Of a stretch of DNA of 42,139 nt, positions 7,291 through 31,461 are shown piece after piece (the first letter of the stretch is position 1; the number at the start of each line of letters is the position of its first letter). Made by a program: the position numbers and the translations under genes. The DNA lies in NCBI GenBank assembly GCA_041497195.1, contig JBGQGB010000002.1, positions 1 through 42,139 on the forward strand, written 5' to 3'. This DNA comes from Candidatus Doudnabacteria bacterium (GTDB lineage: Bacteria > Patescibacteriota > Doudnabacteria > UBA920 > 2-01-FULL-46-14). The notes under the pieces were generated by a model, which saw nothing but the letters and a program-made list of their open reading frames with translations, was not told the origin of the DNA and ran no database searches.

Positions 7291-7329
7291 ATTACCGGAA
7301 GGGTTTTGACTTTTCCGGTAATTTTTTTT
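7291..7329 (+). terminator. Intrinsic terminator after the SH3 gene
   Basis: ATTACCGGAA...TTCCGGTAAT 10-bp stem followed by a T run. Confidence 0.8.
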
Positions 7330-7334
7330 ATACT
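7306..7334 (+). promoter_or_regulatory. Sigma70 promoter for the tRNA-Thr/rpmG unit
   Basis: TTGACT (7306-7311), 17 nt, TATACT (7329-7334). Confidence 0.7.
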
Positions 7335-7510: not shown

Positions 7511-7548
7511 GCCGTTGTAGCTCAGCTGGTAGAGCAACTCCATGGTAA
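7511..7548 (+). pseudogene. Orphan copy of the 5' half of tRNA-Thr(GGU)
   Basis: 38 nt identical to the 5' exon at 7672-7707 plus the AA that starts the 3' exon; no acceptor 3' strand follows. Confidence 0.85.
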
Positions 7549-7671
7549 TAAACAGGTCTACTGTCATTATCAGGAAATGCTTGTAGCGACTGGCTAAAAT
7601 GGCGATAGAGTGAGAGATGGGGCCACCTCTCACAGAAAACAGGTCGCCGGTTCTTTGGAAAAATCATATAT

Positions 7672-7938
7672 GCCGTTGTAGCTCAGCTGGTAGAGCAACT
7701 CCATGGTGGGGCATAAGCTCCCTGCCCATTGCCGGAGAAATCCGACAGTGAATCCCGAATTACGGTCAAAGGCTCGAAAGAGTTAAGACCGTGGCGAGCA
7801 ATCGCCCGAACGACTGACAAGGGTGGCTAAATCCGAAAGGATACGCCAAAGATACAGTCTAATCCCCATATAAGTTTTACGAAATTGGGGTGCAAATGAA
7901 GGAGTAGGTCGTCGGTTCAATTCCGACCAACGGCTCCA
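7672..7938 (+). tRNA. tRNA-Thr(GGU), exons 7672-7707 and 7899-7938, interrupted by a group I intron; CCA encoded
   Basis: Joined exons give a full cloverleaf: GCCGTTG/CAACGGC acceptor, GCTC/GAGC D stem, ACTCC-ATGGTAA-GGAGT anticodon arm, GTCGG-TTCAATT-CCGAC T arm, U discriminator, CCA. Confidence 0.93.
7708..7898 (+). ncRNA. Group I intron (191 nt) at tRNA position 36/37
   Basis: 5' exon ends in U and the intron ends in G. P1 has U7707-G7724 wobble; P7 GACTG/CAGTC; S-like AAGATACAGTCT; GAAA/GCAA tetraloop hairpins; P9 CCCCA/TGGGG. Confidence 0.88.
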
Positions 7939-8374: not shown

Positions 8375-8899
8375 ATGAAGGCGAGAGTCGCGAGGTTGTA
8401 TTTCCGCAGACATCCATGGCTGGGTGATTTATTTCGGGAATGGGGCTACGAATTTCGAGATAGTTGGCTGCAGGAGCGGCTGCACTTCATTGCGTTTAAG
8501 CCGTTCCGGTCTCTCGACTTGGATGCGTCTTTTCCCACAGAGGAAAACCGGTGTTGTCTCCATCACGGCGGACCCCTCGAAAGTTCGATGCATGCGTTTG
8601 TTATGTTCCACTATGTGGGGCCGCCGACAGAGGCACCTTGGGATCGGGCCACGAAACCCTTTTTTAAGCACCTCGGTCGTGTACGTGAGGGTCGCCCCCT
8701 GATCCAGGAGCTCAGGAGTATTTGCAATCAGCGTAGCAGTGATGATTATGCGCTGAGACCAGACGCAATTGTGGTGCGGTTTCAACTGAAGAGCGCCCAC
8801 CTCGGGATTTTAAATGCCGCTGTTGAAGTCTATCTGATTCCCGAGTCGTGGGAGCCACCTGTCGCTCCCGCGAAATCAAAGCGAGCAAAAAAGCCTTAG
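8375..8899 (+). CDS. Hypothetical protein (174 aa)
   Basis: Strong SD AGGAGG, own promoter and terminator; no recognised motif. Confidence 0.8.
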   Translation: MKARVARLYFRRHPWLGDLFREWGYEFRDSWLQERLHFIAFKPFRSLDLDASFPTEENRCCLHHGGPLESSMHAFVMFHYVGPPTEAPWDRATKPFFKHLGRVREGRPLIQELRSICNQRSSDDYALRPDAIVVRFQLKSAHLGILNAAVEVYLIPESWEPPVAPAKSKRAKKP

Positions 8900-8934
8900 C
8901 CAGGAGAAAGGCCTCTTGCGAATGCTTGTTTTGA

Positions 8935-8974
8935 AGGGTCGGTCTGCCTCACGGCAAGCCGGCCCTATTTTTTT
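8935..8974 (+). terminator. Terminator of the 174-aa gene; right arm lies inside repeat copy B
   Basis: AGGGTCGG..TGCC-tcac-GGCA..CCGGCCCT followed by a 7-T run. Confidence 0.8.
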
Positions 8975-9006
8975 GCTCAAATTTTATCTTCACGATCTCC
9001 GGGCGG
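8957..9006. repeat. Direct repeat copy B
   Basis: 8971-9006 is 32/36 identical to 10995-11030 (3' end of the metallophosphoesterase gene). Confidence 0.9.
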
Positions 9007-9027
9007 GTTTAAAATGCCCAAGCAAAT

Positions 9028-9588
9028 TTAGTTCTTTAGATATTCATTTTTTAAGAACTCAGTGAAGTCATCCATTTCTTTTTTGTATAGCAGCCGCCTC
9101 TCATTTCTCGTTTCTTCCGGAAGGTCGGGCAGTACCTCGAGCCCGTTGCTTTGAATACGGAAGCCGTATGCAATGTTATCGAATCCAAGCATTGCGTCGT
9201 AAGGGACTTTTCTGTCGTTGACGCGATAAAATTGATCTAAAAGTCTTATTGATTTGAGTCGTAATTCTCGTCCTTCTTTGTCCACTTTTTCCCGAAGCTC
9301 GTCATTATACTGCCACTTTTCGACATCCGGTTCTTCTGGGTACACTTCGACCCAAGGGGCGAGCGTTTGTTCCTCCAAGACCCTATCAGTCTCGGAATGT
9401 CCTTCGCAGGATTGCCTGGTGCGCAGTCCGTGAGCGTTAAACATTATGACTGCTTCTTTGATGCCCGGTTCAATAGGTCTGCCTGTCGCGTCAGTAATTT
9501 GGTCGATCTCCTTTCGGATTTCCTGAAGGTGATGCTCTTTGGCTGGCCTTCCTTGATCTCCGTGCAGTTCGTCAGAATTTGATGCCAT
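9028..9588 (-). CDS. Hypothetical protein with an N-x2-G-x2-T-x2-SCEGH motif
   Basis: 186-aa ORF coupled 5 nt downstream of the 442-aa ORF. Confidence 0.8.
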   Translation of the reverse strand: MASNSDELHGDQGRPAKEHHLQEIRKEIDQITDATGRPIEPGIKEAVIMFNAHGLRTRQSCEGHSETDRVLEEQTLAPWVEVYPEEPDVEKWQYNDELREKVDKEGRELRLKSIRLLDQFYRVNDRKVPYDAMLGFDNIAYGFRIQSNGLEVLPDLPEETRNERRLLYKKEMDDFTEFLKNEYLKN

Positions 9589-9593
9589 AGATT

Positions 9594-10922
9594 TTAGAGC
9601 TTAGATCTTAGATAGCCCAAAAGGTCTCCCATAACGCGTTCTTCAGATGGCCATCCTGTAACACTACCTGAAACTAATAATAGTCTAGTATTTATAGTAT
9701 TTAATAATATTTTTTTTTCTCGATCAGTGAGCGCTTGAAGAATCTGTTTGTCTGCTATAGTCGAGTGTACAAAGGCATCTTTGTCAGGGTTAGCTTTCAT
9801 TGCTTGAGTCATTAAATTTTCGTACTCTTTTTTGAGGTTTTTAAGTCTCTGAAGAAATCTATCTCCATCAGGATAAAGCATCCTAAAAGCGTCTAGGATG
9901 GCTGCTGTATTTTTTTGTTGGGTTTCCTGGTCTTTGCGGTTATCTCTGCGACCTTCTTCAATGTAGGGGGCATTCAGAATTTGATCGACGGCTTCTCTAG
10001 CGCTGTTTTTATTTCCTCGTTCGTTTAGCTTGGCCCGAATGTTATTGAGCTCGTTTTGGTTATTCTTTTGGTTTCTCGCGACCACTGCTTCTTTTGTAAA
10101 TTTTTTGGTTACCAAATTCCTAAGCGAGGCATCCAGATTCCTTTTGTCACCGGTTCGGCTGAATTGGGTGCCGATTGTTCTCAATTCACCAGTCAAGAAA
10201 TGCATTTCTTGTTCCGACATATTTCCGACACGTCGCAGCAGCTCCTGTCGAGAAGGAACATCTTCGGGGACGCCAGCAAGCGAATACAATTTTTCCAGAG
10301 AGCTAGTCGTCGATGAGCGACCCTGCATCTCTTGTTCACGAGCCCGTTGTCCAGTAGAAGTCCGTTCCGCCCTTGCTTGTTTCTCCATAAACAAAGCGTC
10401 TCTTATGGCTCGGCGCTCATCCCAGGATTGCTTGATTTCCGGTGTAAGGTTCCTTTGCGAGGTGGCGCGTGTTTGCAATAAGCCTTCCACGTATTTTAGT
10501 GTTTTTTCAATGCCCTGCATTCCCTCCTGCCCTGGTTGGTTCATCTGCAGAATTGTGCTTTGAATTTCCAAAGCATCCCGTCTATCACTATGATCTCCAA
10601 GAGATCCCAGTTCTTCCGCGTTTCGATTTAGGGTAGCCTGAGATTCTTGAAAAGACAGAGGCTCCCTGCCCGTCCTTTGGTTTTCCAGTCCATTAGCTTG
10701 GGTGGCTACATAGCGTAGCTCGTCATTCCAGTTTCCTGGCTGTTCCAAAAGCTGCTGGCCTTTGTGATAGTTTTCTTGAGCAAATTCCGTACCTGCGCGG
10801 ATATAAGTATCATAAAACGCAGATCGCCCCATTGAAGCGCTTCTATCGGCAATTTCATACATTTTTCTAGCTACTTCCTGGGATTGATTTTGTGTGGTTT
10901 CTTGGCTTTCGACGTATGGCAT
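9594..10922 (-). CDS. Hypothetical charged, helical protein (442 aa)
   Basis: Long ORF rich in E/Q/R/K, no TM; TATAAT on the minus strand just upstream. Confidence 0.82.
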   Translation of the reverse strand: MPYVESQETTQNQSQEVARKMYEIADRSASMGRSAFYDTYIRAGTEFAQENYHKGQQLLEQPGNWNDELRYVATQANGLENQRTGREPLSFQESQATLNRNAEELGSLGDHSDRRDALEIQSTILQMNQPGQEGMQGIEKTLKYVEGLLQTRATSQRNLTPEIKQSWDERRAIRDALFMEKQARAERTSTGQRAREQEMQGRSSTTSSLEKLYSLAGVPEDVPSRQELLRRVGNMSEQEMHFLTGELRTIGTQFSRTGDKRNLDASLRNLVTKKFTKEAVVARNQKNNQNELNNIRAKLNERGNKNSAREAVDQILNAPYIEEGRRDNRKDQETQQKNTAAILDAFRMLYPDGDRFLQRLKNLKKEYENLMTQAMKANPDKDAFVHSTIADKQILQALTDREKKILLNTINTRLLLVSGSVTGWPSEERVMGDLLGYLRSKL

Positions 10923-31244: not shown

Positions 31245-31265
31245 ACCTTTATAGTTAAATAAATC

Positions 31266-31315
31266 CCTAAGACCGCAGGGGTCCGCCACAAGCGGACTTA
31301 AATAACCTGCCGAGG
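31266..31315 (+). promoter_or_regulatory. L10 leader (ribosomal protein autoregulatory RNA)
   Basis: CCTAAGACCGCAGG-[GTCCGC..GCGGAC hairpin]-TTAAATAA-CCTGCCGAGG matches the known L10-leader core, upstream of rplJ. Confidence 0.85.
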
Positions 31316-31461
31316 AACTAGAGTAGCGGTTAGCTTGTAGCTAATAGCTTTTAGAGACTCGGCCAGGATGCCGAGATTTTTTGTATCCTAAATAGCGCAC
31401 TACGAATGCGCACATCCGAATAATTCGGAACATTCGGAGGGAATTAGTAAATTAGAATCTC

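Follow-up and report, generated by a model that had tools for sequence, protein, structure and literature searches.

A compact ORF-less intron, very probably a group I ribozyme, in the sole tRNA-Thr(GGU) gene of a Candidatus Doudnabacteria genome

Gene structure and genomic context

The window, meaning the whole 42,139-nt stretch of DNA analysed here, lay at the beginning of contig C2 in a genome of 0.97 Mb (13 contigs, 98.65% complete). With introns allowed, ARAGORN called a tRNA-Thr(GGU) gene at positions 7672-7938 (+), reading GCCGTTGTAGCTCAGCTGGTAGAGCAACTCCATGGT, 191 nt of intervening sequence and AAGGAGTAGGTCGTCGGTTCAATTCCGACCAACGGCTCCA. The 5' exon (7672-7707, +) covered tRNA positions 1-36 and carried the anticodon GGU at its end, the intron (7708-7898, +) lay between tRNA positions 36 and 37 with omega-G7898 as its last nucleotide, and the 3' exon (7899-7938, +) comprised positions 37-76 including the encoded CCA. 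This exon and intron design matched 114 homologous loci, and the omega-G was present in 114 of 114 resolved homologues. The splice junctions read AUGGU/GGGG and AAAUG/AAGGAG, and the coordinates were identical to those of the preliminary description, which had placed a 191-nt intron at 36/37, preceded by U and ending in G. Both exons were perfectly intact, and the spliced 76-nt sequence was called as an ordinary tRNA-Thr(GGU) with a clean cloverleaf and an encoded CCA.

Standard tRNA finders had been expected to miss this gene, and neither ARAGORN in default mode nor the Rfam tRNA model called it in the window. Default ARAGORN gave tRNA-Trp as the sole tRNA there, and Rfam at gathering thresholds gave only tRNA-Trp and the L10 leader. 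The program tRNAscan-SE 2.0 was not designed for finding such introns (tRNAscan-SE 2.0 paper). As first described, the intron held no homing ORF, the overlapping open reading frames being spurious (44-45 aa).

The interrupted gene was the only one of its kind in the genome. The 47 tRNA genes given by ARAGORN included ones for Thr(CGU) and Thr(UGU), but a search for a further Thr(GGU) gene, as suggested in the preliminary description, found none. In the long ORFs of the genome, ACC and ACU together accounted for 37 per 1000 codons and 65% of threonine codons; as the sole Thr(GGU) gene, it therefore has to be spliced and to yield a working tRNA.

The neighbours of tRNA-Thr were ordinary, with a gene for an SH3-domain protein upstream and rpmG (L33) downstream, and the tRNA-Thr/rpmG linkage recurred in 55 related loci. 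Right after rpmG, three ORFs (174, 186 and 442 aa; window 8375-10922) gave no match in Pfam. Another 23 kb on came the L10 leader and the rplJ region (31248-31392), which places rpmG away from the usual secE-nusG-rplKAJL block. Elsewhere, the genome encodes tRNA-Ile(UAU) and no more than two CAU tRNAs (contig C3 49136-49210 and C2 158988-160135), which suggests that AUA decoding relies on a UAU anticodon instead of lysidine-modified tRNA-Ile2. Copies of tRNA-Gln(UUG) at the extreme start of contig C1 (66-140) and the extreme end of C2 (240529-240603) are probably a single gene at a contig junction.

Relatives and distribution of the intron

Homologues of the intron were widespread in related bacteria. 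BLAST recovered them from 11 of 61 related genomes at 71-81% identity, and the conserved 17-mer CGAACGACTGACAAGGG retrieved at least 120 records from a species-representative genome collection. Among the loci from these records, 114 of 115 were tRNA-Thr(GGU) genes with UGGU before the intron, G at its end and AA after it, once the splice rule was applied together with the anticodon stem. Labels of His, Arg, Phe, Pro or Leu given by ARAGORN to homologous loci were boundary miscalls, arising because the intron boundaries were ambiguous to the program; all were Thr(GGU) under the same rule. The window intron shared the lineage core CCCGAAUWACGGUY...AGACCGU...CGAACGACUGACAAGGG...AAGAUACAGUCUA with this CPR lineage (loci L002-L132), along with the host tRNA and the site.

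Homologous introns were 171-269 nt long (median 194 across 114 loci). The initial characterization of the intron as very small thus holds against the Azoarcus intron (205 nt) and not within its own family, where 191 nt is close to the median and typical rather than extreme.

Records containing the 17-mer were mostly from CPR bacteria (Saccharibacteria, many Parcubacteria lineages, Peregrinibacteria and others), with a few MAGs labelled as non-CPR and one isolate, Niastella populi. The exact 17-mer occurred in 19 of 401 genomes sampled evenly across the phylum, which sets a minimum for its prevalence. In Niastella populi strain CCTCC AB 208238 (contig10, 300 kb), a 181-nt intron of the same lineage occupied the same tRNA-Thr(GGU) site, and the lineage thus extends beyond CPR bacteria to a cultured member of the Bacteroidota. 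Further matches came from MAGs recorded under the labels Pedobacter, Gammaproteobacteria and Bdellovibrionales (loci L020, L067 and L022, respectively). Matches in Halomonas aquatica (L043), in a Methanobacteriota MAG (L051) and at L116 were due to chance in unrelated sequence without introns. One relative (G043, L002 2493-2701, -) also contained a canonical group I intron, which RF00028 scored above threshold at 57 bits, about 0.8 kb from its Thr intron.

Secondary structure and covariation

The fold was examined in an alignment of 111 distinct sequences (A1), in which every entry covered the intron with 9 nt of exon on its 5' side and 8 nt on its 3' side. Unguided RNAalifold on this alignment returned the anticodon stem, P1, P2 and P4-P9, with compensatory changes in 31 of 46 pairs. 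In the full model (P1-P9 including P3, plus P9.0), 96.5% of cells were paired, against 78.1% in shuffled alignments and 32-43% with slid partners, and double, compensatory changes occurred in 32 of 50 pairs, those of P3 and P9.0 counted. Covariation was found in P2, P5, P6, P8, P9 and P9.0. Folded as a single sequence, the window intron had a z-score of -4.2.

The P1 hairpin (7705-7726, +) paired GGU/GGGG (7705-7711) with CCCUGCC (7720-7726) around L1 CAUAAGCU (7712-7719), with only three base pairs formed by the exon. RNAalifold and pair counts bore out the U7707•G7724 wobble noted at the outset, which marks the 5' splice site (U•G in 110 of 111 sequences), and the two pairs on the 3' side of that site covaried. 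P2 (7729-7748, +), capped by a GAAA tetraloop (L2, 7737-7740), had compensatory changes in all eight of its pairs.

The helices assigned in the preliminary description (ACGGUC/GACCGU, which is P4; P6; P7 as GACUG/CAGUC; P8 with its GAAA loop; P9) were recovered by RNAalifold on the 111 homologues and by pair counts. P4 (7762-7792, +, with the elements it encloses) paired ACGGUC (7762-7767) with GACCGU (7787-7792) and was invariant; within it, the A-rich J4/5 (AAAG) and J5/4 (UAA) flanked P5, GCUC-GAAA-GAGU (7772-7783), which showed compensatory changes in three of three counted pairs. P6 followed as GGCGA-GCAA-UCGCC (7793-7806, +), with such changes in four of its five pairs. The signature 17-mer CGAACGACUGACAAGGG (7807-7823, +; exact in at least 120 records) spanned J6/7, the 5' strand of P7 (GACUG, 7812-7816), J7/3 (ACAA) and the 3' strand of P3 (GGG). 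P8 (7824-7848, +), UGGC-UAA-AUCC-GAAA-GGAU-AC-GCCA, had compensatory changes in four of four counted pairs and contained a variant 11-nt GAAA-receptor motif, CUAAA/AUACG. It was followed by J8/7 (AAGAUA) and the 3' strand of P7 (CAGUC) at 7849-7859 (+), invariant in the family.

The pseudoknot formed with P7 relied on a short P3, in which CCC (7754-7756, +) paired with GGG (7821-7823). All P3 cells were paired (100%), and its only changes were C to U, which kept a G•U pair. Because the search pattern dictated its GGG strand, the alignment carries no information on covariation in P3; P4 and P7, being invariant, spoke neither for nor against pairing, and all three helices are consistent with the model. 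P3 ran straight into P8, with no J3/8. In P7, G7812-C7859 is the putative G-binding pair, as judged from its position alone.

The 3' part of the intron (7860-7898, +) comprised J7/9 (UAAU), the P9 hairpin, in which CCCCA (7864-7868) paired with UGGGG (7886-7890) with compensatory changes in five of five pairs, and the 3' tail UGCAAAUG. Positions 3-4 of J7/9 paired with the two nucleotides preceding omega-G to form P9.0 (A7862·U7897 and U7863·A7896). Its pair types were nearly evenly divided (GC 59 and AU 46; CG 55 and UA 44), with 98% of cells paired. P10, which had been proposed between AAGGAG of the 3' exon and CUCCCU, did not hold up: 53.9% of its cells were paired across the family, against 54.4% after shuffling, and covariation was absent.

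Tertiary contact and a pairing between L1 and the 3' tail

The L2 tetraloop covaried with its predicted receptor in P8. A GAAA loop was found in 48 of 50 sequences with a P8 motif of the GCUAAG...UAUGC type and in 1 of 61 sequences with a plain P8, the remaining 60 having GUAA, GCAA or a different loop (Fisher p = 8e-28, computed ignoring phylogeny). The window intron combined a GAAA L2 with a receptor variant in P8.

A second long-range complementarity linked L1 to the end of the intron. Nucleotides C-A-U of L1 (7712-7714, +) were the complement of the last three intron nucleotides, A7896-U7897-G7898 (A1 columns 14-16 with 389-391), and in sequences with a long P1 extension C-R-Y in L1 was complementary to the terminal R-Y-G(omega). 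An exact complement was found in 69 of 111 sequences, against 27.6±3.9 after shuffling, and 88% of 248 cells were paired, against 12-39% with slid partners. Since two nucleotides of the tail serve both this pairing and P9.0, the two are mutually exclusive, and the pairing of L1 with the tail might act as a switch, possibly holding omega-G out of the G site before the first step. To our knowledge, no such pairing has been described for group I introns.

Group I membership

The features expected of a group I intron were present at the splice sites and in the core. The 5' splice site followed the U of the U•G wobble in P1 and the intron ended in omega-G; the core displayed the P3-P8 and P4-P6 domains and the P3/P7 pseudoknot in canonical order, P3, P4 and P7 being invariant or fixed by the search. 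J8/7 and the 3' strand of P7 (AAGAUACAGUCUAA) matched the Rfam group I consensus AAGAUAUAGUCuaa.

The covariance model RF00028 had no match, at its gathering threshold or at E<=10, to the window, to the whole genome or to the intron alone (216 nt; queries of 216-700 nt), and the window intron fell short of the 50-bit threshold of the model. The preliminary description had counted the lack of such a hit against its own reading, and formally this is what was found. In eight relatives, the homologous introns scored 17-22 bits, below the gathering score, and were mostly misaligned; in a homologue, the alignment was correct for P8'-J8/7-P7'-P9 only. Together, the missing match here and the low scores in relatives point to a divergent group I lineage rather than a canonical IC3 member. 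The comparison of 111 homologues, together with the weak matches in relatives, outweighs the missing match. The initial assignment to group I at 36/37 was thus upheld by the splice-site and core features and by helices that covaried in 111 homologues. It is very probable that the intron at 36/37 in the sole tRNA-Thr(GGU) gene of this CPR genome of about 0.97 Mb is a compact group I ribozyme without an ORF, the gene structure, the helices and their covariation, the conserved splice-site nucleotides and the lack of a second Thr(GGU) gene being directly supported.

Comparison with known introns

The Azoarcus intron has a 3-nt exon pairing and a GAAA L2 loop with its receptor in P8. The window intron resembled it in its short pairing between exon and guide, its U•G wobble and its omega-G, and also in a GAAA L2 with a P8 receptor, indicated here by covariation. 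Both introns occupy position 36/37 in the anticodon loop of a bacterial tRNA, have no ORF and consist of a compact core of P2-P9 and P9.0 without P5abc or peripheral domains, the Azoarcus intron being known as a self-splicing, 205-nt intron of this architecture at an anticodon-loop site (PMC13168695). In contrast to the latter, the window intron lies in another host tRNA and is 14 nt shorter; its P3 has just 3 bp and runs directly into P8, its P10 is unsupported, and its J6/7-P7-J7/3 segment CGAACGACUGACAA is distinct. The Rfam model finds canonical bacterial tRNA introns, whereas the window intron was left unscored.

An intron in tRNA-Thr at this site had already been listed. The preliminary description had deferred to the literature on whether Thr(GGU) was a reported host, and Thr at 36/37 appears there as class 'Thr.5Ug' in a covariance-model seed (seed Rba53.Thr.5Ug; Williams 2020, bioRxiv 10.1101/2020.01.27.920355), in a study that expanded the settings of bacterial tRNA introns to 21. 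The window intron shares with Thr.5Ug the host (tRNA-Thr, ..GGU), the insertion after the fifth nucleotide of the anticodon loop (36/37), U(-1) and omega-G. Unlike the window intron, the Thr.5Ug seed has a canonical IC3-type core, AAAUUCGGGGAAA ... CAAUCCCGAGCC, and the GACUGAC motif was found nowhere in the Williams 2020 seed alignment; the window lineage is thus a distinct intron at this site, and the more divergent of the two. Group I introns had also been said to occur in tRNAs of Patescibacteria, and CPR tRNAs are on record as bearing such introns, to the detriment of their detection (PMC8172020).

Proposed splicing mechanism

Transcription of the pre-tRNA would probably start from a putative promoter at 7306-7334 (TTGACT-17-TATACT, 10/12), the sole sigma-70-like match near the tRNA. 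This site lay upstream of the orphan half-gene described below and overlapped a terminator-like hairpin 3' of the SH3 gene. Shuffled sequence yields about one match of this sort as well, and the site is therefore weak as promoter evidence. The pre-tRNA is predicted to fold into P1-P9, with the GGU at the end of the exon paired to GCC of the internal guide, which would set U7707•G7724 at the 5' splice site. The GAAA loop of L2 would dock onto the P8 receptor, P3 (3 bp) and P7 would form the core pseudoknot, and G7812-C7859 would bind guanosine. An exogenous guanosine would attack after U7707, omega-G7898 would next occupy the G site, placed by the 2-bp P9.0, and ligation of the exons would give the normal 76-nt tRNA with the anticodon loop AUGGUAA.

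We infer that the intron would be catalytic and would act without proteins. Alternatively, the group I fold could be present with no autonomous self-splicing in the cell, a protein cofactor or chaperone perhaps being needed given the 3-bp P3, the 3-bp pairing between exon and guide and the lack of a P10. The short P3 with its absent J3/8, the unsupported P10 and the divergence from the Rfam model would fit this dependence. We nevertheless consider it improbable, as no maturase or endonuclease gene was found in or adjoining the intron, and covariation of the tetraloop with its receptor and within P9.0 indicates a self-contained tertiary fold. The Azoarcus intron likewise has a 3-nt exon pairing. 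Robust splicing is described for that intron (PMC13168695).

An orphan 5' half upstream of the gene

An intron-less copy of tRNA positions 1-38 lay at 7511-7548 (+), 123 nt upstream of the gene and 100% identical to positions 1-38 of the spliced tRNA. It was followed by a decayed piece of variable loop and T stem and by a 9-bp repeat, AAACAGGTC, that flanked about 87 bp of spacer (window 7511-7671). Five other genomes (L004, L036, L061, L067 and L096) had an orphan 5' half as well, 155-174 nt upstream of tRNA-Thr. In each of the six genomes, no more than one difference separated the orphan from the 5' exon of its own gene, and the agreement extended to lineage-specific positions; the spacers, in contrast, had diverged. 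The six genomes formed no clade in the intron tree. Nothing suggestive of a structured RNA was seen in the 123-nt spacer, and the six homologous spacers aligned poorly.

Either gene conversion or selection may keep the orphan intact. Gene conversion is the simplest account of its identity to the gene, and a second usable 5' splice site a bolder one. In the bolder account, the ribozyme would serve two 5' exons: the orphan, which also ends in AUGGU, would base-pair with the guide used by the gene's own 5' exon, and its ligation to the only 3' exon would produce an identical mature tRNA. The orphan lies downstream of the sole promoter-like site (7306-7334) and is probably in the same transcript as the gene. 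We regard the use of two 5' exons as unlikely; if true, selection against mis-spliced, defective tRNAs would explain the identity of the orphan beside a decayed spacer, and gene conversion would explain it equally.

The orphan might instead be a scar. Under this explanation, an integrative island split a resident, intron-less tRNA-Thr and brought the intron-bearing gene as a spare, so that 7511-7548 would be what is left of the resident gene and the intron would mask the integrase target at the DNA level, a role beyond that of a selfish or neutral ribozyme. The orphan does stop exactly after the anticodon loop, and the 9-bp repeat flanks 87 bp of the spacer, as such an event might leave them. 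However, Pfam searches of ORFs between 6.7 and 15.7 kb gave no integrase and no LAGLIDADG or HNH endonuclease domain, no second tRNA-Thr 3' half to match the orphan was found in the window or the assembly, and the gene stood in its usual tRNA-Thr/rpmG context, common to 55 loci. An island or homing-endonuclease setting was rejected on the first two grounds, and the island explanation as a whole appears very improbable. A decaying pseudogene, with the insert a dead intron or another insertion that is never removed, could draw on the rearrangement evident from the upstream fragment and on the missing covariance-model match, and is hardly credible for the sole Thr(GGU) gene, needed for 65% of threonine codons, with perfectly intact exons and with splice-site nucleotides and helices kept through compensatory changes over more than 100 species.

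Significance

The reading of the insert as a compact group I ribozyme intron places it among introns of a kind already reported, and the window adds an example rather than a discovery: the same intron at the same site in more than 100 related genomes makes it a further case of a known kind. At 171-269 nt, the lineage represents a group I ribozyme that is minimal by nature, and the clean covariation among its 111 distinct sequences, seen also in P9.0 and in the switch between tetraloop and receptor types, makes it a good subject for work on ribozyme structure. For the organism, the consequence concerns its apparent translation capacity. Without intron-aware tools, the genome appears short of a tRNA for 65% of its threonine codons, a shortage that the Rfam group I model leaves in place. 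The same apparent gap in tRNA-Thr would be expected in about 1 in 20 of the Patescibacteria genomes sampled (19 of 401 by the exact 17-mer, a lower bound).
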